A stretch of 64,000 nt of DNA from an uncultured Bifidobacterium sp. (lineage in GTDB: Bacteria > Verrucomicrobiota > Verrucomicrobiia > Limisphaerales > JADLHS01), in assembly GCA_964594985.1 (NCBI GenBank), contig CAZQNQ010000006.1:1997-65996 (forward strand), given 5' to 3'. The position numbers were made by a program, and so were the translations under genes. The notes below the pieces were generated by a model. The model was not told the DNA's origin. It saw nothing but the letters and a program-made list of their open reading frames with translations, and searched no databases. Position 1 is the first letter of the stretch. Every line of letters starts with the position of its first letter. Of this stretch, positions 3,595-48,761 are shown piece after piece.

Positions 3595-3622
3595 GGAGCG
3601 CCGAGCCGGCGCTCGGCGCTCC
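3595..3622. repeat. Palindromic REP, GGAGCGCCGAGC family (intergenic copy)
   Basis: ggagcgccgagc cggc gctcggcgctcc, with perfect 12-nt arms. An outer pair cagaccg / cggtctg flanks it. Confidence 0.8.
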
Positions 3623-7465: not shown

Positions 7466-7538
7466 CCAAACAAATCCATCTGCGGGGGCGGGGCGAGGTG
7501 CTTGAGTTTGTCGCGCTCCTGCTGGCGGCGCGGTTGGC
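7466..7538. repeat. Direct-repeat copy of the mutS 3-prime terminus (73 bp, 2 mismatches versus 8559-8631)
   Basis: ccaaacaaatccatctgcgggggcggggcgaggtgcttgagtttgtcgcgctcctgctggcggcgcggttggc compared with the true mutS end. On the minus strand it would encode QPRRQQERDKLKHLAPPPQMDLFGS. Confidence 0.85.
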
Positions 7539-7539
7539 C

Positions 7540-7794
7540 TTATCCGCCTGCCAATGTCTCCAACCGTTTCAGGGAAAAGACATCGCCACCCCGCAGGAAG
7601 AAGCGCGTGATTTGCTCGCGCAACTGGCGGTAGAGCGCGGGGTCGGTTTGCGCGAGTTGTACCGGCACGTCGCGCCGGGCGAAACGCACGAGCGCGGCGA
7701 GTTCGGCCCAGCGTTTTTGTTGGAAATAAACATCCACTTGGGCCGGGTCGGCCAGCAGGGCGCGGGCGGTCAATTCTTCTTCGCGGGCATTCAT
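7540..7794 (-). CDS. Hypothetical small protein (84 aa)
   Basis: ORF starting 3 nt after the stop of the NTase-fold gene. Its stop codon lies immediately before, and in frame with, a duplicated mutS tail. It contains no His residue, so it is not a HEPN RX4-6H protein. Confidence 0.4.
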   Translation of the reverse strand: MNAREEELTARALLADPAQVDVYFQQKRWAELAALVRFARRDVPVQLAQTDPALYRQLREQITRFFLRGGDVFSLKRLETLAGG

Positions 7795-7796
7795 GT

Positions 7797-8345
7797 TCAG
7801 ATTTCCAGCACGTCGAGATAGACGAGATTTTCGGTGGCGCGTTCGCGGGCTTGGGAATTGAATTCAACAATAATGCTCCGCACTCGTTGCAAGTCCGGGC
7901 GATGGCGGCTCAACAAAAAACGGATGTCGCTCAAGTCTTTTGGTTCCGCACGAATGAGCTTGGCGGCGATGAGATTTTCCACCGGCGGTCGAAAGAGATG
8001 CAATCGCCCCATGCGTTCTATCAACATGGGGTCAAAGTTTCCCAGTTGCGTCAATCCTGGCTCGATGAGTTGCAGATACGGGCGGTCGGGTTCGAGCGTC
8101 TGTTTGGGATCGAAGAGCAGGCCGATTTTTTCGGCTGCGGTCTTGAGTTCAAGCCGGTCGTAGTCACTCGCGGGTTTCCAGATGTCGAGGTCGGCGGAAG
8201 TGCGTCCATCCATGCCCCCAAACAAGCAAGCCGCCGAACCGATGAGACAGAGCCGGAGCGGAGAACCTTCTTTGCCGAGAGCTTGAGCGAGATCAGCCAA
8301 CACCGCCGACCACGCTTCGCCGTCGAGTTGTAGCTTCAAGGACAT
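7797..8345 (-). CDS. Nucleotidyltransferase-fold protein (minimal NTase / DUF6036-like)
   Basis: LIGSAACLFGGMDGRTSADLDIW matches the G-S...D-x-D signature of minimal nucleotidyltransferases. 182 aa. Confidence 0.55.
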   Translation of the reverse strand: MSLKLQLDGEAWSAVLADLAQALGKEGSPLRLCLIGSAACLFGGMDGRTSADLDIWKPASDYDRLELKTAAEKIGLLFDPKQTLEPDRPYLQLIEPGLTQLGNFDPMLIERMGRLHLFRPPVENLIAAKLIRAEPKDLSDIRFLLSRHRPDLQRVRSIIVEFNSQARERATENLVYLDVLEI

Positions 8346-8421
8346 TCAGTACGCGGTGGCATCATAACCAAAACTCGGTGGCGAATCAAACCAACAAAGA
8401 GGCCCGCACCTGTTGCTTGAT

Positions 8422-8441
8422 CCAAACAAATCCATCTGCGG
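8422..8441. repeat. Partial (20 bp) third copy of the mutS 3-prime terminus
   Basis: ccaaacaaatccatctgcgg is identical to the first 20 nt of the copies at 7466 and 8559. Confidence 0.6.
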
Positions 8442-8520
8442 CGCACGGACGGTCCCCGTCCGCAGCGGGTGAAGGGGGAAGTGGGTTTATGGATTATCCT
8501 ACATCTTTCTGTCTGGCGAC

Positions 8521-8548
8521 GCGCTGCGGCTGAGGACAGCCGCGCTCC
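8521..8548. repeat. REP hairpin, CAGCCGCGCTCC family
   Basis: gcgctgcggctgaggacagccgcgctcc, just downstream of the mutS stop. Confidence 0.6.
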
Positions 8549-8554
8549 AGCGAT

Positions 8555-11332
8555 TTACCCAAACAAATCCATCTGCGGGGGCGGGGCGAGTTGCTTGAGC
8601 TTGTCGCGCTCCTGCTGGCGGCGCGGTTGGCGGACGTTGCCTTCGGGAGTGAGTTCGGATTCTTCGAGGTTCACCAGGATTTGCTTCGCGCGTTCCAACA
8701 CTTCCTTCGGCACGCCGGCGAGACGCGCGACCTGGATGCCGTAGCTCTTGTCCGTGCCGCCTGCGACGATTTTGCGCAGGAAGACAATCGCGTCGTGCCA
8801 CTCGCGCACGGCGACATTGAAGTTCTTGATACGCGGCAGGCGTTGGGCGAGTTCGGTCAGTTCGTGATAGTGCGTGGCGAACAGGGTTTTCGCGCCAACG
8901 ATGTTGTGCAGGTATTCCACGATGCTCCACGCGAGGCTGAGGCCGTCGAACGTGCTGGTGCCGCGGCCGATTTCGTCCAAAATGATGAGGCTGCGCGGCG
9001 TGGCGTTGTTGAGGATGTTGGCCGTTTCGCTCATCTCGACCATGAAGGTGGATTGCCCGCGCGCCAGATCGTCGCTCGCGCCGATGCGGGTGAAGATGCG
9101 GTCCACGAGGTCAATGCGCGCTTCCTTCGCGGGAATGAAACTCCCGGTGTGCGCGAGCAATGTGAGTAGCGCCACCTGCCGGATATAGGTGGATTTACCC
9201 GCCATGTTCGGCCCGGTGATGAGGGCGATTTGCGGAGCGCCGAGCACTGCCTTGGCCTGTTTCGCGTCGCCTTCGGTTCGAGCCGAGGTGGTGCTCGGCG
9301 CTCCGCTGGAAAGCACCGCATCATTCGGCACGAAGCGTTCGTCCACCAAGCTTTGTTCCAACACCGGATGGCGGCCATCGGTGATTTGCAGCTCACCTTC
9401 GTCGCTGACTTGGGGGCGGCAATAGTCGTGCAATCGCGCGATCTCGGCGAAGGAGGCGAGCGCGTCGAGTTGGGCGAGGGCGGACGCGGTCTGCTGGATT
9501 TTGGCGAGTTGGCCGAGGACTTCTTCGCGGAGGCGTTGGAAGAGTTCGTATTCCAACTTCACGCTGCGTTCTTCCGCGCCGAGGATCTTGCCTTCCATGT
9601 CTTTCAATTCGGGCGTGATGAAGCGCTCGCCGTTGGCGACGGTCTGCTTGCGGATGTAATGCGGCGGGACTTTGTCGAGGTTCGACTTGGTGACTTCGAT
9701 GTAATAACCGAAGACGGAATTGAACCGCACTTTGAGCGAGCTGATGCCAGTGCGTTCGATTTCATCCTGCTGCAACTTGGCGAGCCAATCCTTGCCGCCG
9801 CGTTGGGCGTTGCGGAGTTCGTCGAGGTCGGGGCTGAAACCGTCGCGGATCATCCCGCCTTCCTTCACGGCGAGCGGCGGTTCGTCCACGATGGCGCGAC
9901 CGATCAGCTCGACGAGGTCGGGCGATTCGGAGAGTTGCGCGGTGAGGTTGGCGAGTAACGAGTTGCCCCTCACCCCGTCCCTCTCCCCATCCGATGGGGA
10001 GAGGGTGGCCGATAGGCCGGGTGAGGGGGTGTTCAAATTCTCGCCTGTAGCAGCCGACGTGAGGAGGCTCTGACTTCCTGCTTCCGAATTGAGCCTCCTT
10101 ACGGCGGCTGCTACGAAGGAGGAGAGGGTTTGCCGCAGGGCGGGAATCTGTTCCAGCGCCTGGCGCAGCACGACAAGGTCGCGCGCGTTGCCGCTGCCGG
10201 TGCTGAGGCGGCCCAGCGTGCGTTCAAGGTCTCGGACTTGCGTGAGTTGCGCGCGGAATGTGTCGAGGCTGGTGGAGTTTTCGATGAACGTCGCAACAGT
10301 TTCCTGACGTTGGCGAATGGGTTCAACGGCGGCGAGCGGTTGGGAAAGCCAGTTGCGCAGGAGCCGCGCGCCCATCGGCGTGGCGGTTTTGTTCAACGCG
10401 CCGTAAAGACAGGCGTTGCGCGGGGCGTCGCGGTGTTGTGGTTCGAGGATTTCGAGATGTCGTAGCGTGGTGTAGTCAAGCGCGAGGAAGTCCGTACGTT
10501 GATAGAATGACAGGCGCGTGAGGTGTTTCACGTCGCGCCGGAGATTTTGCGTGAGGTAATGCAGCGCGCCGCCCGCCGCGCCGATGGCGGCAGTGCGATC
10601 CTTCAACCCGAAGCCGTCGAGCGAGGCGACCTTGAAATGCTCGCGCACGGTGAATACGGCGGTCTGTGGGGCGAAGGTCCAGTCGTCGTAAGCGCTGACA
10701 GTCCAGCCCCGTCCTGTGGCTGCGCTCGTGAGAGCGCGGCTGACACTTTTTGGATCAGCCGTGTTCTCACGAACACAGCCACAGAGCAAGTCGCGGAGCG
10801 CAACGGCTTCCATCGGATGCACGATCTCGGCGGGGCGAAGGCGTTCGAGTTCGGTGAGGAGCGCGGCTTCGGCTTCGACTTCGGTGGTGAGGAAATCGCC
10901 AGTGGTCAAATCCACGAGCGCAAGGCCGAAGGTTTTCCCGGTGCTGACTACTGCGGCGAGGAAGTTGTTGCGCTCGGCGACAAGCATCCGTTCATCGAAG
11001 TGCGTGCCGGGGGAAAGGATTTGCGTGACCTCGCGATTGACGAGTTTGCCGGGCTTGGCTTCCTCGGTCTGCTCGCAGATGGCGACCTTGCGTCCGGCTT
11101 TGAGCAGGCGACTGATGTAATTGTTGGCCGCGTGATACGGCAGGCCGCACATCGGGATGCCGTTGCGGGCGGTGAGAGCGAGATTGATCAATTGAGAGGC
11201 GACCTGCGCGTCCTCAAAGAACATCTCGTAGAAATCGCCGAGGCGGAAGAGCAGGAGCGCGTCTTTGGGCAGTTCGCTTTTGATGCGGCGATACTGCGCC
11301 ATCATGGGAGTGAGTTGCGCTTCGGCAGACAT
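8555..11332 (-). CDS. mutS: DNA mismatch repair protein MutS
   Basis: N-terminal TPMMAQYRRIK...FYRLGDFYEMFFEDA-type mismatch-binding motif, Walker A GPNMAGKST, DEIGRGTSTFDG and FATHYHELT. It is 925 aa, longer than typical MutS, because of in-frame repeat insertions (see the repeat features). Confidence 0.95.
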   Translation of the reverse strand: MSAEAQLTPMMAQYRRIKSELPKDALLLFRLGDFYEMFFEDAQVASQLINLALTARNGIPMCGLPYHAANNYISRLLKAGRKVAICEQTEEAKPGKLVNREVTQILSPGTHFDERMLVAERNNFLAAVVSTGKTFGLALVDLTTGDFLTTEVEAEAALLTELERLRPAEIVHPMEAVALRDLLCGCVRENTADPKSVSRALTSAATGRGWTVSAYDDWTFAPQTAVFTVREHFKVASLDGFGLKDRTAAIGAAGGALHYLTQNLRRDVKHLTRLSFYQRTDFLALDYTTLRHLEILEPQHRDAPRNACLYGALNKTATPMGARLLRNWLSQPLAAVEPIRQRQETVATFIENSTSLDTFRAQLTQVRDLERTLGRLSTGSGNARDLVVLRQALEQIPALRQTLSSFVAAAVRRLNSEAGSQSLLTSAATGENLNTPSPGLSATLSPSDGERDGVRGNSLLANLTAQLSESPDLVELIGRAIVDEPPLAVKEGGMIRDGFSPDLDELRNAQRGGKDWLAKLQQDEIERTGISSLKVRFNSVFGYYIEVTKSNLDKVPPHYIRKQTVANGERFITPELKDMEGKILGAEERSVKLEYELFQRLREEVLGQLAKIQQTASALAQLDALASFAEIARLHDYCRPQVSDEGELQITDGRHPVLEQSLVDERFVPNDAVLSSGAPSTTSARTEGDAKQAKAVLGAPQIALITGPNMAGKSTYIRQVALLTLLAHTGSFIPAKEARIDLVDRIFTRIGASDDLARGQSTFMVEMSETANILNNATPRSLIILDEIGRGTSTFDGLSLAWSIVEYLHNIVGAKTLFATHYHELTELAQRLPRIKNFNVAVREWHDAIVFLRKIVAGGTDKSYGIQVARLAGVPKEVLERAKQILVNLEESELTPEGNVRQPRRQQERDKLKQLAPPPQMDLFG
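8559..8631. repeat. Functional mutS 3-prime terminus acting as the third direct repeat (att-like)
   Basis: Same 73-bp sequence as 7466-7538 (2 mismatches). Encodes the last about 24 codons of mutS. Confidence 0.85.
9234..9304. repeat. Palindromic element (GGAGCGCCGAGC family) inside the mutS ORF
   Basis: ggagcgccgagcac...gtgctcggcgctcc with perfect 14-nt arms. Translated within MutS as GAPSTTSARTEGDAKQAKAVLGAP. Confidence 0.8.
9966..10029. repeat. 63-64-bp palindromic element (CCCCTCACCCCG..CCCTCTCCCC family) inside the mutS ORF
   Basis: cccctcaccccgtccctctccccatccgatggggagagggtggccgataggccgggtgagggg. Near-identical copies at 21375, 37434 and 48700, plus arms of the 300-bp element. Confidence 0.85.
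10047..10114. repeat. Palindromic element (GTAGCAGCCG family) inside the mutS ORF
   Basis: gtagcagccgacgtgaggaggctc ... gagcctccttacggcggctgctac, with perfect outer 10-nt arms. Translated as ...AAAVRRLNSEAGSQSLLTSAATG. Confidence 0.75.
10714..10784. repeat. Palindromic element inside the mutS ORF
   Basis: ctgtggctg cgctcgtgaga gcgcggctga ... tcagccgtg ttctcacgaaca cagccacag, with nested perfect 9-nt and 7-nt arms. Confidence 0.7.
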
Positions 11333-15554: not shown

Positions 15555-15855
15555 TTAAGGCATGTTTTCAAAATGGATTTATTGGCTGAGTTCGAGGGGC
15601 GGCGAGTGGAATGGTTGGTGGCTCGCCCTCACCCCGGCCCTCTCCCCCGGGGAGAGGGGGACACGCTCGCTGCGGCGCGACGGATTGACAGTGGCGGATT
15701 TGACCACGTCCAACGACCGAGTACAAAAGGGCGGTGCGATGCTGCTCCCTCTCCCCGGGGGAGAGGGCCGGGGTGAGGGCGAGCGTGGCACTGATTTCAT
15801 GACGGGAGGCATTGCATCCCAGAGCCGTTGGAAAACATTTTGAAAACCACCCTGG
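15555..15855. mobile_element. About 300-bp MITE-like element, family B, copy 1
   Basis: Ends TTAAGGCATGTTTTCAAAATG ... CATTTTGAAAACCACCCTGG form terminal inverted repeats (core 12 nt perfect). The interior holds two inverted CTCACCCCGGCCCTCTCCCC arms. It is collinear with 31351-31651 with about 20 differences. Confidence 0.7.
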
Positions 15856-18781: not shown

Positions 18782-19923
18782 ACCCGCGCGCGGACATCGC
18801 AGTCGTCGGTGCCGGTGCGGCGGGAATCGCCGCCGCTGTTTGCGCGGCGCGGGCCGGGGCGAACACGATGCTGTTCGACGCGCGTTCCGCGCCCGGCGGC
18901 ACCGGTGGGTTCAGCGGATTGACCACGCTTTGCGGCCTCTACGATGGCGCGGGGATTTTTCTCAATGACGGTTTTGTGCGCGAGTTTGCCGAAGCCGTGA
19001 TGGAGCGCCGAGCACCGGCTCGGCCAGTTGTTGAAGATTTGAATCGAGCCGAGGCGGCGCTCGGCGCTCCGCTTCGCATGGGGCGTGTTTGGGTGCTGCC
19101 GTATCGCCCGGAGAAGTTTCGCGAAGTGGCGGCGGAGTTTGTTTCCCCCATGCTTAACTTGCGGGTGCAGTGGAACACGCCGCTGGCTGGGGTGGTTTTT
19201 GAATCAGCTCGCATCACGCACCTCAACGGTTTTGAAGTCGGTGCCGTGATTGATTGTACTGGCATGGCGGAAGTGGCGCAGGCGGTCGGCGTGGAAACCC
19301 TGGCCACGGACGAAACCACGCAAGCTCCCGCGGTCATCTTTCCCCTGCGAAACGTAGCGCGCTCATTGGAGACCGCAGCGGACATGACGCAAGTGCTGTT
19401 GCCGCTGGCTCGTGCGGGTTTTCCGCCACTGAATCTACAGGCAAGCCTGACGCCGGGGGAGTACACGGCAAAGTTCGCTGGAACGCCGGAGCAGGTGCCG
19501 CAACTCATCGCTTTCCTGCGGGCCAGCGTTCGTGGCTTCGAGCAATGTGAAACGTCACAGCAAGAATTTCCTGTGGCCCGTCGCGCCGGGCGGATGATTG
19601 TCGGCCAGTATGTCCTGACCGGCGCGGATGTGTTGGCGGGAAGAAAATTTTCAGATGCCGTCGCGCGTGGCGGGTGGCCCATCGAACAGTGGGATGCCAA
19701 AGGCGCGGTGCGATTCAAATACCTTCCGGCGGGAGCAAGCTATGACATTCCGGCGCGGGCGCTGCGGGCGGCGCGGGTGGATAATCTGTTCATGGCCGGC
19801 AAAAGCATCAGCGCGGATGTGGACGCCATCGCCAGCGCGCGGGTGATGGGCTGCTGCCTGGCTACCGGTGCGGCGGCTGGAGTTCTGGCGGCGAACTTTG
19901 TAGCCTCGACGAAAATCAGGTGA
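18778..19923 (+). CDS. FAD-dependent oxidoreductase
   Basis: Subset of ORF 17704..19923. GTG start overlapping the upstream stop (GTGA). Dinucleotide fold IAVVGAGAAGIAAAVCAARAG and C-terminal MAGKSISAD...ASARVMGCCLATGAAAG. Carries a 69-bp palindromic element in frame (19002-19070). Confidence 0.7.
   Translation: MNPRADIAVVGAGAAGIAAAVCAARAGANTMLFDARSAPGGTGGFSGLTTLCGLYDGAGIFLNDGFVREFAEAVMERRAPARPVVEDLNRAEAALGAPLRMGRVWVLPYRPEKFREVAAEFVSPMLNLRVQWNTPLAGVVFESARITHLNGFEVGAVIDCTGMAEVAQAVGVETLATDETTQAPAVIFPLRNVARSLETAADMTQVLLPLARAGFPPLNLQASLTPGEYTAKFAGTPEQVPQLIAFLRASVRGFEQCETSQQEFPVARRAGRMIVGQYVLTGADVLAGRKFSDAVARGGWPIEQWDAKGAVRFKYLPAGASYDIPARALRAARVDNLFMAGKSISADVDAIASARVMGCCLATGAAAGVLAANFVASTKIR
19002..19070. 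repeat. Palindromic element (GGAGCGCCGAGC family) inside the FAD-oxidoreductase ORF
   Basis: ggagcgccgagc...gctcggcgctcc, 69 bp = 23 codons. Translated as ERRAPARPVVEDLNRAEAALGAP. Confidence 0.8.
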
Positions 19924-21164: not shown

Positions 21165-21219
21165 TGGGAAATCCGGATTACGATTCGATAACGGTTGCCA
21201 GAAACCATCTCCGGGAGAA

Positions 21220-21303
21220 CCCACCCCCAGCCCCTCCCGGGAGGGGAACTCTTTTACGAGCGCTTTCTCAAATGCTCACCTCCCGGGAGGGGCTGGGGGT
21301 GGG
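21220..21303. repeat. 84-bp perfect-armed palindrome (CCCACCCCCAGCCCCTCCCGGGAGG)
   Basis: 25-nt arms are perfectly complementary. Lies in the intergenic region between the PaaK-like and GT2 genes. Confidence 0.85.
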
Positions 21304-21374
21304 TGTGTCGCAGATGTCGGAAATTTATTCTGGCAAACGCCCTAGACTGGTTCTCTTAGATCGTTTCCGGACGG

Positions 21375-21436
21375 CCCCTCACCCCGGCCCTCTCCCCATC
21401 CGATGGGGAGAGGGTGGCCGAAGGCCGGGAGAGGGG
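21375..21436. repeat. 63-bp palindromic element (CCCCTCACCCC family), intergenic copy
   Basis: cccctcaccccggccctctccccatccgatggggagagggtggccgaaggccgggagagggg. Confidence 0.85.
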
Positions 21437-21531: not shown

Positions 21532-22659
21532 ATGAAACCCTGCGTCCTCATCCCGTGTTACAACCACTCCGCCACCGTGGGCGCAGTGGCGCAGGCGGCA
21601 TTGACGCACGCGCCGGTCATCGTGGTGGACGATGGTTCGACGGAGCCTCTGCCGGAGTTGCCGGGATGTGAAATTGTTCGGTTGAAACAGAACGGCGGCA
21701 AGGCGACGGCATTGCGGGCGGGGTTTCAACGCGCGGTGGAACTTGGTTTCACCCACGCCATCACGATGGATGCGGATGGTCAGCATTTTACCGAGGATCT
21801 CCCGAAGTTTCTCACGGAAGCCCAGCAGAAGCCGGAAGCGTATCTCGTCGGAGTGCGGAATTTCCGGGAAGCCGGCTGTCCGACGCACCGGCGGCGTTCC
21901 AATGCCATCTCAACATTCTGGTATCGCGTCGAGACGGGCGTGCGACTGCGCGACACGCAATGCGGTTTTCGCTGCTATCCGCTCGCATTGGTGCAGCAGT
22001 TGCAGATCCGGTCGGATCGCTACGCGTACGAGTTGGAGTTCATGGTGCGCGCGGCGTGGGTGGGCACGGCCATCGTGGCGATCCCGGTGAAATGCACTTA
22101 CGAACCGGGCAAGACCGGCACGTCGCACTTCCGCACGGTGCGCGACTTCGTGCATATCACGAACCGCAACATCATCCTCGTGTTGCAAACGTGGCTCGTG
22201 CCGTTGTCGCTGCGGGTGGATTGGTCCCGGGGGCGAAAGAACAAGTTCGGGCGCGTTCTCCATGAGTTTTTTACGGAGCACGCCCACGAACCGGGGCGGC
22301 TGGCGGTGGCGGTGGGGCTGGGACTGTTCTTCGGCATTCTGCCCATCTATGGATTCCAGATGGTGGTCGCGGCGGCCGTGGCCCATAAGCTGCGCGTGAA
22401 CAAGGCGATCACCTTGCTCGCGAGCAATATTTCCATTCCCCCCGTTGCCCCATTTATTTTTTGTGCGGCGCTGGTGCTGGGGCACTGGTTGCTGACGGGC
22501 GAGGTTTTGAAACTGTCACCGCAGTTGATCACCCGGGAAACATTGTGGGAATACCTGGGCGATTGGCTGTTTGGGAGCCTGGCCCTGGCCATCGGGGTTT
22601 CCGTCATTGGGATGATAGTGACCTACGGCATCGCGCGCTTGGTGCGGAGGAAGGGCTGA
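21532..22659 (+). CDS. Family 2 glycosyltransferase fused to a C-terminal multi-TM (DUF2062-like) domain
   Basis: CVLIPCYNHSATV, VVDDGSTE and AITMDADGQH (DxD) are GT2 signatures. The C-terminal third is hydrophobic. The start is set at MKPCV because the upstream ATG at 21514 lies inside a small hairpin repeat. Confidence 0.75.
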   Translation: MKPCVLIPCYNHSATVGAVAQAALTHAPVIVVDDGSTEPLPELPGCEIVRLKQNGGKATALRAGFQRAVELGFTHAITMDADGQHFTEDLPKFLTEAQQKPEAYLVGVRNFREAGCPTHRRRSNAISTFWYRVETGVRLRDTQCGFRCYPLALVQQLQIRSDRYAYELEFMVRAAWVGTAIVAIPVKCTYEPGKTGTSHFRTVRDFVHITNRNIILVLQTWLVPLSLRVDWSRGRKNKFGRVLHEFFTEHAHEPGRLAVAVGLGLFFGILPIYGFQMVVAAAVAHKLRVNKAITLLASNISIPPVAPFIFCAALVLGHWLLTGEVLKLSPQLITRETLWEYLGDWLFGSLALAIGVSVIGMIVTYGIARLVRRKG

Positions 22660-22698
22660 CCACAAATGGACGCAAACAAACACGACTTGGTTGGCTGA

Positions 22699-29404: not shown

Positions 29405-29419
29405 GTCGGGAAACTAGTT

Positions 29420-29559
29420 AACCACAGATGGACACTGATGAACCCGGATTCCAAACCGGAAAACCATGACCCGAATGCCGCGGGTTTTCGCCAATTGAAT
29501 TCGCGCCAATTCGCGCCAAGCCGTTTCCCCATCCGTGTTCATCCGTGTTCATCCGTGGT
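29420..29559. mobile_element. MITE-like element, family A, copy 2
   Basis: aaccacagatggacactgatgaacccggatt ... atccgtgttcatccgtgttcatccgtggt, with centre gaattcgcgccaattcgcgcc. Lies between the dehydratase and C45 genes. Confidence 0.55.
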
Positions 29560-31350: not shown

Positions 31351-31651
31351 TTAAGGCGTGTTTTCAAAATGGATTTATTGGCTGAGTTTGAGGGCAGCGA
31401 GTGGAATGGTTGGTGGCTCGCCCTCACCCCAGCCCTCTCCCCCAGGGAGAGGGGGATACACTCGCTGCGGCTCGACGGATTGACAGTGGCGGGTTTTACC
31501 ACGTCCAACGGCCGAGTCCAAAAGGGCGGTGCGATGCTGCTCCCTCTCCCCGGGGGAGAGGGCCGGGGTGAGGGCGGGCGTGGCACTGATTTCATGGCGG
31601 GATGCCTTGCACCCCAGCGCCGCTGGAAAACATTTTGAAAACACACCCTAA
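31351..31651. mobile_element. About 300-bp MITE-like element, family B, copy 2
   Basis: Same ends (TTAAGGCGTGTTTTCAAAATG ... CATTTTGAAAACACACCCTAA) and the same orientation as copy 1. Sits inside the minus-strand lipid operon, between the NodB and LolA-like genes. Confidence 0.7.
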
Positions 31652-34818: not shown

Positions 34819-34937
34819 TTAGAAGGAGCGGGAAGCGAACGGAGCGCGGGCTTTAGCCCGCTGCAACGCCGCGGTTTGGGAGATTTGTGGAGCCAGTGAC
34901 ATGGCGAAAGTTGAAGCGGCGTAAACGCCGCGCTTCG

Positions 34938-35786: not shown

Positions 35787-36999
35787 GGCTCAGGATCAAG
35801 GCGCCGTTCACTCCGCCGAAACCGGTGTTGAGTTTCAAAACATGTTTCAGCGCGACACCGGGCCGCGGAGTTTTCACCAGACTGGCGGGAAGTCCTTCGG
35901 CAATCGTGTCCAAGCGGGGCGTTCCCGGCAGAAAGTTTTCCTGCATCGCCAGCACACATGCGATGGTTTCAACGACGCCGGCTGCGCCCAGCGTGTGGCC
36001 CAACATGCCCTTGATGCCGCTGAGGGGCGGGATGGCGTCGCCGAAGACCGTGCGCAACGCGGCGGATTCCATGGCGTCGTTGTACGGCGTGCCCGTGCCG
36101 TGGACGTTGACGTAATCAATCTGCCCGGGCTGCAACTTCGCAGTGTGAAGCGCGGCGCGGATGGCTTGGGCGAGACCCGCGCCGTCGCGCGACGGGCCGG
36201 TCATGTGGTTGGCGTCATTGCTCGAACCCCAGCCGCGAATGGTGATGGAAGATTTTGGTGCGAGGTCGCTGCGCACGAGCATAATTGCCGCACCTGCTTC
36301 TCCAGGGCTGAGGCCGCGGCGGTTTTGGTCGAATGGGCGGCAACCTTCCGGATCAATCGCCTTGAGGGTGGTGAAACCGCCGACGACAAAGGCGGACAGA
36401 TGATCCACGCCAACAACGAGCACGGCGTCGGCCGCGCCGCGTTGGATGAGTTTCGCGCCCTGCATCAATGCCACAAGGCCGGAGACGCAGGCGTTGGAGA
36501 TGTTTTGCACCGGGCCACGCGCGCCAAATTCAGCGGCGAGGTCGGCGGTGAGGAGATCGGCTTGCAGATGACGACGCGCGGCGGCAGAGCAGGGGCGGCC
36601 ATCAGAGAGGCGTTCGAGCGCTTCGATGTTGGCCTTGGTGGTGGAGAGCACCAAGCCGAGGCGATCGGGGGAAATGTCCACGGTAGGGCGCGTCACTCCG
36701 TGCGCGCCGTCGTTGCCAGGAAGAAGCCCGGCGCGCACGGAGTGACGCGTCCTACCATCGCAGGTCGCAGAAATTGCTTCGCGAATCGCGATGGTCGCGA
36801 GTTGATGCGCGGGGTTGTCGGTGGCAGGGTCAATCGGCGCAGTGCCGACGATGTTGGATTGGAAGCGCAGGGCGTTGAAACGTTCGTTCGGGCGAAGGTG
36901 GCTGGTGTTGGTGCGCAGAGCTTCGAGCAAGGCGGAAGTGCCGTTGCCCGCCGCGCTGATGACGCCGCAGCCCGCGATGGCAACTTGCGGCTCACGCAT
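35779..36999 (-). CDS. Beta-ketoacyl-ACP synthase (FabF/FabB-like)
   Basis: ISNACVSGLVALMQGA (active Cys), HMTGPSRDG, NVHGTGT and GHTLGAAG. Carries a 75-bp palindromic insertion in frame (36682-36756). Confidence 0.9.
   Translation of the reverse strand: MREPQVAIAGCGVISAAGNGTSALLEALRTNTSHLRPNERFNALRFQSNIVGTAPIDPATDNPAHQLATIAIREAISATCDGRTRHSVRAGLLPGNDGAHGVTRPTVDISPDRLGLVLSTTKANIEALERLSDGRPCSAAARRHLQADLLTADLAAEFGARGPVQNISNACVSGLVALMQGAKLIQRGAADAVLVVGVDHLSAFVVGGFTTLKAIDPEGCRPFDQNRRGLSPGEAGAAIMLVRSDLAPKSSITIRGWGSSNDANHMTGPSRDGAGLAQAIRAALHTAKLQPGQIDYVNVHGTGTPYNDAMESAALRTVFGDAIPPLSGIKGMLGHTLGAAGVVETIACVLAMQENFLPGTPRLDTIAEGLPASLVKTPRPGVALKHVLKLNTGFGGVNGALILSHE
36682..36756. repeat. 75-bp palindromic element inside the ketosynthase ORF
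   Basis: ggtagggcgcgtcactccgtgcgcgcc ... ggcgcgcacggagtgacgcgtcctacc (27-nt arms, 1 mismatch). 25 codons, translated as CDGRTRHSVRAGLLPGNDGAHGVTRPT. Confidence 0.85.
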
Positions 37000-37405: not shown

Positions 37406-38446
37406 TTAGTGTGCGCTGGGGTTGGGCGATGCCCCCCTCACCCCGTCCCTCTCCCCATCGGATGGGGCGAGGGGGGCCGTCAGGGTGGGTGAGGGGTTGG
37501 CGTGCGGATTGGATTGTTCGTTGCCGTTCGGGGTGGGTTTGGCCGCTTCCCAGAACGGGAAAAAATTATACCACTGGAACGGGTCGCGCTTGACGATGGT
37601 TTCAAGGCGCGCGGCGAATTGCGTGGCACAGGCGCGGAGATGGGCGTCGCGTTGGTGATGGGGCGGATGATGCGGCGGCACGGGCGGAAAGCCGAAGAAG
37701 TGATAATGCCCGCCCGGTTCGCGCAAACTGAACACCGTGACGATCGGAGCGCCCGCAATCGCCGCCATGACGTAGCCGCCGATGGGGAAGTGCGCTTGCC
37801 CACCGAGGAATGAAATGGTCTGTGCCGGGCTGCCGTAGGTGCGGTCACCCATCATGCAGACGAGTTCACCGCGCCGCATCGCCGCGACAAGCTGGATGGC
37901 GTCGGTGGGCGAGCCGGTGAGCGGGATGAGTTTGAAATGTTGCTTTGCGGAGCGGTCCAGGGTCGCGCGGATGGCGGGCGCTTCCTTGTCAAAGCCGGTG
38001 ACGTTGATGGGGCATTTGACGCGTGAAAGGAGCTGGCCGGCGGCTTCCCAATTGCCGACGTGCGCGGTGAGGAGCAACACGCCTTTGCCGGCGGCGACGG
38101 CGTCGTGGATGTTCTGTTCGCCATCGAACGTGAAGGAAAATTTATTCGCGCCGCCGGCAAGGATGGCGGAGCGATCAATGATGGCGCGGCCGAACGAGTG
38201 GAAATGTTTGAACACATACCAGCGGCGTTTCCACCACGGGATTTTACCGAAGACGCGGCGGTGGAAATCCATTGTGGCCGGCACGTCGGGCGAGGCGAAG
38301 CTGAAATACAGCGCGGGCGGGATCGCGAAGAGATACGCGACGCGCGGGCCGAACCAGCGGATGAGCGCGAGGAAGAACGCGATGCCGCGTTTGCCGCCGC
38401 GCAACTGGCCGGTGCCGGACCAGTGTTTGGTTTCAGGCGCAGCCAT
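37406..38446 (-). CDS. LpxL/HtrB-family (lipid A lauroyl-type) acyltransferase
   Basis: LLTAHVGNWEAAGQ (the H-x4-E/D box of the LpxL/HtrB family) and an N-terminal membrane segment. The last about 30 codons are encoded by a 63-bp palindromic repeat (37434-37496). Confidence 0.7.
   Translation of the reverse strand: MAAPETKHWSGTGQLRGGKRGIAFFLALIRWFGPRVAYLFAIPPALYFSFASPDVPATMDFHRRVFGKIPWWKRRWYVFKHFHSFGRAIIDRSAILAGGANKFSFTFDGEQNIHDAVAAGKGVLLLTAHVGNWEAAGQLLSRVKCPINVTGFDKEAPAIRATLDRSAKQHFKLIPLTGSPTDAIQLVAAMRRGELVCMMGDRTYGSPAQTISFLGGQAHFPIGGYVMAAIAGAPIVTVFSLREPGGHYHFFGFPPVPPHHPPHHQRDAHLRACATQFAARLETIVKRDPFQWYNFFPFWEAAKPTPNGNEQSNPHANPSPTLTAPLAPSDGERDGVRGASPNPSAH
37434..37496. repeat. 63-bp palindromic element (CCCCTCACCCC family) forming the C-terminal tail of the LpxL-like ORF
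   Basis: cccctcaccccgtccctctccccatcggatggggcgaggggggccgtcagggtgggtgagggg. Translated as ...PTLTAPLAPSDGERDGVRG. Confidence 0.85.
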
Positions 38447-48643: not shown

Positions 48644-48699
48644 TTCCAGTTTAGAGCGTACTGCAAAAAGAATGGCGAAAACTCTGGTCGGACGGGCGG

Positions 48700-48761
48700 C
48701 CCCTCACCCCGGCCCTCTCCCCATCGGATGGGGAGAGGGTGGCCGCAGGCCGGGTGAGGGG
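48700..48761. repeat. 63-bp palindromic element (CCCCTCACCCC family), intergenic copy
   Basis: cccctcaccccggccctctccccatcggatggggagagggtggccgcaggccgggtgagggg, upstream of the GH43-LamG gene. Confidence 0.85.

Follow-up and report, generated by a model that had tools for sequence, protein, structure and literature searches.

How can a housekeeping gene carry strong palindromes in its coding sequence and still be read from end to end, and what kind of DNA are these palindromes? The question is posed by mutS in a 64-kb stretch of verrucomicrobial DNA (contig CAZQNQ010000006.1, positions 1,997 to 65,996; the whole stretch is called the window, and coordinates count from its first letter). The gene is an uninterrupted open reading frame (ORF) of 925 aa on the minus strand (8555-11332) with the Pfam domains MutS_I to MutS_V all present, and it holds four strong palindromes that lie in frame and form hairpins. 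An initial annotation, made from the sequence alone, had located these palindromes in the ORF and quoted the peptides they encode; the inverted repeats are where it placed them, the peptides are present in the translation, and its other factual statements also held on checking. We consider it probable that the four segments are translated copies of non-autonomous repeats, built as dimers of repetitive extragenic palindromic (REP) units in the manner of REPINs, which are kept or exchanged at sites that the protein tolerates.

Palindromes within the mutS reading frame

Taken in coordinate order, the first palindrome, S1 (9232-9306), belongs to a repeat family denoted A and is an inverted repeat whose 25-nt arms are 88% complementary (GGAGCGCCGAGCAC...GTGCTCGGCGCTCC); its translation, GAPSTTSARTEGDAKQAKAVLGAP (residues ~677-700), stands directly ahead of the Walker A motif PQIALITGPNMAGKST. 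S2 (9966-10028), a member of family B, is a palindrome with nested perfect arms of 10 nt and 13 nt (CCCCTCACCC / CCCTCTCCCCATC.GATGGGGAGAGGG / GGGTGAGGGG) that encodes ...SPGLSATLSPSDGERDGVRG..., and is followed by S3 (10047-10114), a GTAG-tagged REP dimer with 24-nt arms (92%; GTAGCAGCCG...CGGCTGCTAC) encoding VAAAVRRLNSEAGSQSLLTSAAT. The GTGG-tagged palindrome S4 (10714-10784; 30-nt arms, 87%; CTGTGGCTG...CAGCCACAG) is read as CGCVRENTADPKSVSRALTSAATG at residues 184-207, within MutS domain II. A predicted MutS peptide spanning an insertion junction would read, for example, ...VLSSGAPSTTSAR....

The coding-strand RNA folds of S1 to S4, in the same order, have energies of -49.3, -52.2, -44.4 and -55.3 kcal/mol and z-scores of -7.6, -6.7, -7.0 and -9.9, and 0 of 200 shuffles fold as well. 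Across the window, nine hairpins reach a score of at least 14; 100 third-order Markov simulations gave a mean of 0.07 and never more than 2. When hairpins were defined more loosely (stem of at least 11, at most 1 mismatch), the window had 25 against 12-25 in simulated sequence; this definition was not discriminating and was dropped in favor of the score threshold. A Rfam scan of the window gave no match, and coding-strand terminators were not found in mutS.

Two of the families are repeated within the window. Family A (GGAGCGCCGAGC...) has three copies: the one in mutS, a short intergenic palindrome (3595-3622) and an in-frame element at 19002-19070. Family B (CCCCTCACCCCG.CCCTCTCCCCATC.GATGGGGAGAGGG) has four, recurring intergenically at 21368-21436 and 48693-48761, the latter at the upstream edge of a GH43 gene, and within an ORF at 37427-37495; the remaining families are represented once each. 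The claim that the palindrome families also occur between genes is borne out in the window by families A and B. No second copy of the elements at 10047 and 10714 was found in the window; the family of the former (GTAGCAGCCGACGTGAGGAGGCTC) is repeated in related contigs, both within and outside mutS, and another family that occupies mutS in relatives, the VGRAS family, has 10 copies outside mutS in 808 kb of related flanking DNA. The families are dispersed repeats, with copies in other genes and in intergenic DNA.

Occupied and empty sites in mutS orthologs

We compared about 190 close mutS orthologs in all. A protein search yielded 120 of them at 77-91% identity (861-933 aa), the named members of which derive from Verrucomicrobia metagenome-assembled genomes (MAGs), while close relatives were reached by searching metagenome contigs with a clade-specific 195-aa MutS fragment; the DNA of 82 close orthologs was retrieved. 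Distant element-free MutS proteins from four species-representative genomes served as outgroups (L001-L004; the best is 68% identical among the matches listed). That best match, L001 (CALRJY020000063.1), is labelled as a Chitinophaga pinensis MAG; given this label and its verrucomicrobial-like MutS, the bin may be mislabelled or contaminated. Families were assigned by hand-made peptide motifs in the inserts. Attempts to group the inserts automatically by their DNA (blastn, shared 10-mers and ungapped arm identity) chained GC-rich families together and were discarded.

The mutS ORF is intact in all orthologs, and the sites differ in how they are filled. Site S4 is empty in 58 of 71 full-length orthologs, including all nearest relatives of the query, with the empty alleles reading RDLL-RNS-GWTV or RDLL-RGAFQ-IL; in the other 13 it is filled by five families. 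At the DNA level, 75 nt stand in place of the 9 nt CGCAACTCC of the empty alleles. Only the query and its nearest relatives (P0002-P0004) have S3 (residues 408-431), which L081 lacks; the S3 family also sits at site S1 of 12 other orthologs, where it is read in a different frame, and between genes in L099 and L110. At the domain III site that comprises S2 and S3 (residues ~405-458, hereafter S2/3), almost all ingroup members carry an element, drawn from at least nine hairpin families; the same holds for site S1, with at least 17. Empty S1 alleles occur in L111 and L137 (VPNDxAFNxELQIALIT) and in the four outgroups, and remnants of elements were seen in L099 and L153. At S2, the family B copies of the query and L081 differ at 1 of 63 nt, the whole genes being 89% identical.

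These alignments show the mutS segments to be insertions rather than ancestral sequence, and on this point the initial annotation, which had proposed insertions in three patches, stands: S4 is empty in most orthologs, and S3 is present in the closest relatives only. A correction is needed here. In two of the three patches, nearly every close ortholog has an element, but the families differ, which marks these patches as replacement hot spots and not as lineage-specific, one-off insertions.

The alignments also bear on whether the segments could be ordinary, fast-evolving low-complexity linkers of MutS that are palindromic by chance and are not mobile DNA. At the domain III site, outgroup MutS proteins do possess an acidic linker that varies and measures 29-40 aa. 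However, inverted repeats in these linkers are not significant (arms of 4-9 nt), whereas the hairpins in mutS fold with z-scores of -6.7 to -9.9, the boundaries between presence and absence are sharp, and identical nucleotide sequences lie in other genes and in intergenic DNA. The repeat copies elsewhere, the sharp boundaries and the hairpin-free outgroup linkers effectively refute this explanation, and we regard it as extremely improbable.

Other genes of the window, identified by their Pfam domains, contain the same kind of element, as the initial annotation had claimed for three ORFs in which we also find real palindromes. The beta-ketoacyl synthase (KS) gene holds a GGTAGG-tagged REP dimer of 75 nt, or 25 codons, in frame (36682-36756; GRTRHSVRAGLLPGNDGAHGVTRPT). 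This insert is absent from most of 120 orthologs, which are 383-384 aa long against 406 aa here; the closest orthologs carry the same family, and some others carry other families or remnants at the same site. The family A element at 19002-19070 (69 nt, 23 codons) lies in frame in a flavin adenine dinucleotide (FAD)-dependent oxidoreductase, and at its codon site the oxidoreductases of L081 and L082 have a sister family, GGAGCGCGGAGCTCC.... The family B element at 37427-37495 is read through in the C-terminal tail of a lipid A acyltransferase ORF and folds more weakly (z -2.5). On these comparisons, the insertions in the KS and FAD-dependent oxidoreductase genes behave like those in mutS.

How often the families at one site were exchanged is less readily counted. 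On a neighbor-joining tree of 71 tips, Fitch counts give a minimum of 38 family changes at S2/3 and 40 at S1; since the tree is star-like, the true number of changes lies between the number of families and these counts. Direct traces of exchange are provided by a nested state in L098, where a VGRAS element with a decayed right arm contains a family B element, and by further intermediates or remnants in L160, L114 and the KS ortholog P0126. Such nested states and remnants document that elements inserted into resident ones, with decay afterwards.

Repeated replacement is not the only process that could distribute families in this way. The differences in family may instead stem mainly from a limited set of old insertion alleles that homologous recombination of mutS segments has redistributed among lineages. 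Scattered orthologs with the same family do have junction codons outside the palindrome in common (e.g., ...TSAAT-EIKF-PQIALIT), spacer variants form groups, and the star-like tree makes the counts of 38 and 40 upper-range estimates. Shuffling nevertheless leaves at least 17 families at S1 and at least nine at S2/3 that still need that many independent colonizations, and the nested intermediate in L098 shows replacement in situ. Similarity at neighboring synonymous sites is barely higher for same-family pairs (0.678) than for different-family pairs (0.655), which makes this test uninformative. We take recombination of this kind to be a serious alternative, and yet a rather unlikely one.

Proposed maintenance and mobilization of the hairpins

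Nearly every insert among the orthologs is a hairpin with arms of 20-34 nt and a spacer of 10-50 nt; the copies in the window have spacers of 11-43 nt, and their minimum-free-energy structure is one long hairpin. In several families the arms are stem-loops themselves (e.g., GTAG-CA-GCGGAC-GTGA-GTCCGC-TC and GCCGAG-CACCAC-CTCGGC). The motif GT[AG]G marks the outer end, with C[TC]AC at the other, in 58 of 137 strong hairpins detected in 1.02 Mb of related DNA; within the window, the GTAG or GTGG tag is present at 10047-10114 (GTAG...CTAC), 10714-10784 (GTGG...CCAC), 36682-36756 and 1783-1894. As far as it can be read from these features, the anatomy is that of a putative inverted REP dimer, or REPIN-like element.

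The reading frames bear on translation. One family, GTAGCAGCC..., is read as VAADVRRL at S2/3 and as GSSGRESAQ at S1, and the frame of this family that would read TAG was never seen among the orthologous inserts. The use of two frames without the TAG frame, together with insert lengths in multiples of three, fits a filter imposed by translation.

Taken together, a model for the mutS segments emerges. The element would consist of two inverted units of 20-30 nt, many of them GT[AG]G-tagged at their outer ends, around a spacer of 10-50 nt, and the verrucomicrobial lineage would carry dozens of such repeat families. A copy that lands in a gene would survive only if its length is a multiple of three, if it offers a stop-free frame and if it falls in a tolerant surface loop; surviving copies would be translated as low-complexity loops of 22-25 residues. 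For this part of the model, the survival filter and the predicted translation as loops, the comparison of orthologous sequences provides the demonstration. MutS would tolerate inserts at three sites: one loop each in domains II and III, and the loop that precedes the P-loop strand of the ATPase domain. In an HMMER alignment to E. coli MutS structures, the three patches coincide exactly with breaks or gaps, at residues 183-202, ~386-401 and ~603-610, which we take to lie in domain II, in domain III and just before the P-loop strand, respectively. Eukaryotic MSH6 has a longer loop at the position before the P-loop strand.

Once a site is occupied, its hairpin would tend to be kept or exchanged and would rarely be lost. 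Exchange could proceed in two ways: another family inserts into the resident element, the arms of which then decay, or copies elsewhere in the genome overwrite the resident element or convert it. We infer this keep-or-exchange step; it leads one to expect differing families at the same codon site in relatives, and arms that are conserved while spacers drift. The second expectation can be set against the VGRAS family, for which 24 orthologous copies are available at S2/3. Mean pairwise identity is 93% in the arms (91% at third codon positions) and 58% in the 24-nt spacers; in the flanking coding DNA it is 63% at third positions and 91.5% at positions 1 and 2. With third positions at 91% in the arms versus 63% in the flanks, the arms are held at the nucleotide level and not at the peptide level, and ascertainment adds a little to this conservation, as decayed copies are harder to classify. 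The spacers drift neutrally, and the arms are either under selection or repeatedly overwritten from other copies.

A second trait of mutS is the crowding of hairpins. The mutS genes, 216 kb in total, contain 76 strong hairpins, whereas 808 kb of flanking DNA contain 61, a density about five times higher in mutS; only about 6-12 of the 61 hairpins in the flanking DNA are intragenic, and the families found in mutS are also present outside it. This density makes mutS a favored or a retentive host.

Arm conservation and crowding together invite a different explanation, in which the mutS hairpins are selected nucleic-acid elements, for instance very stable mRNA or DNA structures that tune MutS expression or act as mutator switches through excision or slippage, so that any family serves and the site is always filled. 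Conservation of the arms at all codon positions while the spacer peptides drift, the filling of S1 and S2/3 in nearly all ingroup orthologs despite the differences in family, the fivefold density over neighboring DNA and folds of -44 to -55 kcal/mol all speak for it, and genes for replication and repair have been noted before as holding more intragenic REPs than expected (Di Nocera 2013; PMC3733652). Yet the empty alleles in the clade and the outgroups (L111, L137, L001-L004) imply that the hairpin is not required, the same families lie between genes and in the unrelated KS and FAD-dependent oxidoreductase genes, and the coding strand lacks terminator-like T tracts. Arm conservation, moreover, is equally well explained by overwriting from active copies and in part by ascertainment. 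We judge selection of the hairpins as such to be unlikely.

Between these lies a stronger form of the keep-or-exchange idea, which we raise as a speculation and think doubtful: the resident hairpins in mutS could be landing pads that are repeatedly overwritten by other families, with their arms thereby held against synonymous drift. Were this true, it would imply hairpin-directed replacement by Y1 transposases, gene conversion inside ORFs, or selection for a stable hairpin in mutS; the last of these could, for example, set MutS dosage or provide a reversible mutator switch.

The model of translated, filtered REP-dimer copies would have the elements mobilized by Y1 (HUH) transposases of the IS200/RAYT kind (RAYT, REP-associated tyrosine transposase). 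This is inferred from the anatomy and from Y1 genes flanked by GTAG hairpins in relatives. In related Verrucomicrobia (L081, 12690-13282; L163-L166, at about 430-1180), Y1 genes lie between inverted hairpins with GTAG or TTAG tags (GTAGCCCAYRGC...GCYRTGGGCTAC), and a second, nested inverted pair (GCCCCGGCAGGGGCG) also brackets them; in L107 (6870-7018), the outer hairpin pair stands 126 nt apart with no gene between. The Y1_Tnp gene of L081 encodes 166 aa and lies directly downstream of mutS. These arrangements show that Y1 enzymes associated with GTAG hairpins exist in the lineage.

Several observations weigh against the favored explanation. On the enzymatic side, no Y1_Tnp gene was found in the window, and only one was found in 1.02 Mb of related DNA. 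The L081 gene, named a RAYT in its JGI annotation, does not qualify as one: NCBIfam assigns it to IS200/IS605 at 74 bits, whereas the RAYT model scores 20.5 bits against a cut-off of 80. The GTAGCCCAYRGC hairpin family of the Y1 genes was not found in mutS; neither the window nor the related contigs contain a cognate transposase linked to the mutS hairpin families, and no parent insertion sequence (IS) was identified for the mutS elements. The anatomy is also not uniform, in that the GTAG tag is missing in family A (GGAGCGC...) and family B (CCCCTCACCC...), as it is in arms composed of heptamers (e.g., GATTGCC x3). The junctions of empty and filled alleles show no target-site duplication, and the insertions there are imprecise, with replacement of a few codons on the flanks. 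Translation of the elements is predicted from the integrity of the ORFs, and an AlphaFold2 model of MutS, built with 57 close orthologs, is too poor to confirm surface exposure (mean predicted local distance difference test (pLDDT) score 48.6, predicted TM score 0.36); the inserts appear in it as coil with the lowest pLDDT, in a model too weak to count as evidence. Finally, the fivefold density in mutS is not predicted by random insertion plus filtering; it is predicted by a model in which an occupied site stays occupied.

Related systems and further repeats in the window

In-frame palindromes of this kind have precedents. Di Nocera, De Gregorio and Rocco (2013; BMC Genomics 14:522; PMC3733652) sorted REPs into GTAG- and CGTC-tagged superfamilies and found intragenic GTAG REPs to be most numerous in Opitutus terrae, a verrucomicrobium, where in-frame REP dimers encode 20-30 aa, many of them in DNA synthesis and repair genes. 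The initial annotation was not aware of any characterization for this lineage, and is to be corrected in that the phenomenon has been described in the same phylum; the kind of element and its presence in the phylum are already published. The resemblance extends to GTAG- or GTGG-tagged stem-loops arranged as inverted dimers, to peptides of 20-30 residues that start with V-G or V-A, to several families per genome and to over-representation in DNA synthesis and repair genes. The present elements differ in lineage and in families, and families A and B and the heptamer-built arms are untagged. The list of REP-bearing genes in PMC3733652 does not include mutS, and differing REPs at about the same site are described there for Xanthomonas recB only, whereas about 190 orthologs here yield at least nine to at least 17 families per codon site.

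Likening the palindromes to Rickettsia palindromic elements (RPEs), as the initial annotation did, is apt as an analogy. RPEs, the classical analogue, are in-frame palindromes in functional, often essential genes, where they are translated as additional loops, with both genic and intergenic copies (Ogata et al. 2000, as summarized in PMC3733652). The comparison with RPEs is one of description, with no sequence relationship supposed, and the host phylum differs. Like RPEs, the mutS elements are inserted in frame in a functional gene, at places where the E. coli MutS alignment has gaps or breaks. Most RPEs exceed them in length, RPE-1 being about 100-150 bp. Their copies are said to decay after insertion, in work attributed to Amiri and co-workers in 2002, unlike the arms here, which stand at 93% identity.

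REPINs, as described with their RAYTs by Bertels and Rainey (2011; PMC3116915), likewise consist of two inverted REPs and a spacer that form a long hairpin. In Pseudomonas, according to the REPORTH preprint (bioRxiv 10.1101/2024.10.14.618302), REPINs at conserved extragenic positions are of mixed types and "may be overwritten"; the mutS elements would have in common with them that they persist for long at orthologous sites and are overwritten by another type, and arm conservation with spacer drift fits. REPINs are, however, extragenic by definition and have one cognate RAYT per population, whereas many copies here are intragenic and no RAYT was found, and the coexisting families are far above the 1-3 typical of Pseudomonas REPINs. 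Bacterial miniature inverted-repeat transposable elements (Correia/NEMIS, ERIC and Nezha; PMC10969869) are also small, non-autonomous hairpin repeats that can be co-transcribed with genes, but they have IS-derived terminal inverted repeats and a target-site duplication, and no duplication is seen at the junctions here.

What the present locus adds is mutS as a host, a natural allele series with many families at the same codon sites, arms conserved at the nucleotide level although they lie in coding sequence, and hairpins strongly concentrated in mutS compared with the neighboring DNA. Selfish hairpin repeats can, on this evidence, join a housekeeping protein without destroying it. The approximately 190 natural mutS alleles form a data set for studying how REP and REPIN elements choose and re-use sites, how their arms are kept up in coding DNA, and which MutS loops, including one beside the ATPase P-loop, tolerate 20-60 extra residues. 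For Verrucomicrobiota, peptides encoded by the repeats (..SPSDGER.., ..LLTSAAT.., ..AREDARPT..) are a contaminant of protein databases: they make proteins look longer and may lead alignments and domain annotation astray. Should the hairpins influence how MutS is expressed or how stable it is, they would be relevant to the control of mutation rate.

Further members of this repeat population lie outside the genes discussed. Two GGAGCGC-tagged single units are related to family A: a REP-like stem-loop read from the sequence 7 nt past the mutS stop codon (8520-8548; GGAGCGCGGCTGTCCTCAGCCGCAGCGCG) and a single REP unit just outside a coding region (34841-34861; GGAGCGCGGGCTTTAGCCCGC), the family of which, as a dimer, occupies mutS site S1 in 9-11 orthologs. 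Intergenic DNA also contains a REP-dimer-like hairpin with 31-nt arms in a divergent region (1596-1706), a GTAG-tagged REP dimer (1783-1894; CGTAGGGCAGGC...GCCTGCCTTACG) and a hairpin element with 29-nt arms of 97% complementarity (21219-21304), the family of which is also found in frame within mutS of L139. Another repeat family, of short tandem units (TAACCACAGATGAACACAGATGAAC...), sits right at gene ends (734-775, 22657-22688 and 29419-29450); similar units build long hairpins in L105 and L161.

The 3' end of mutS is itself duplicated: its last 73 nt (8559-8631) recur at 7466-7538 with 97% identity, and part of them is found again at about 8421-8441 (CCGCAGATGGATTTGTTTGG). The copies enclose two minus-strand ORFs, one for a DUF6036 nucleotidyltransferase (7797-8345) and a small one (7540-7794), and in relatives the slot after mutS is taken by the IS200-like Y1 transposase gene (L081) or by RHH/PIN and NucS-like genes (L082). 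To all appearances, small cassettes can integrate at the mutS 3' end repeatedly.

Two larger sets of repeats were also observed. A 251-nt direct repeat (15597-15847 and 31392-31642) has 93% identity over a distance of 15.8 kb, and by synteny with L081 the first copy may be an 84-aa PP-binding (carrier protein) gene. Between 44000 and 63800, many diverged direct repeats (families D1, D3-D11, D14, D18 and D19) fall in very long minus-strand ORFs, one of which carries GH43 and Laminin_G_3 domains; these look like repeated protein modules and not like mobile DNA.

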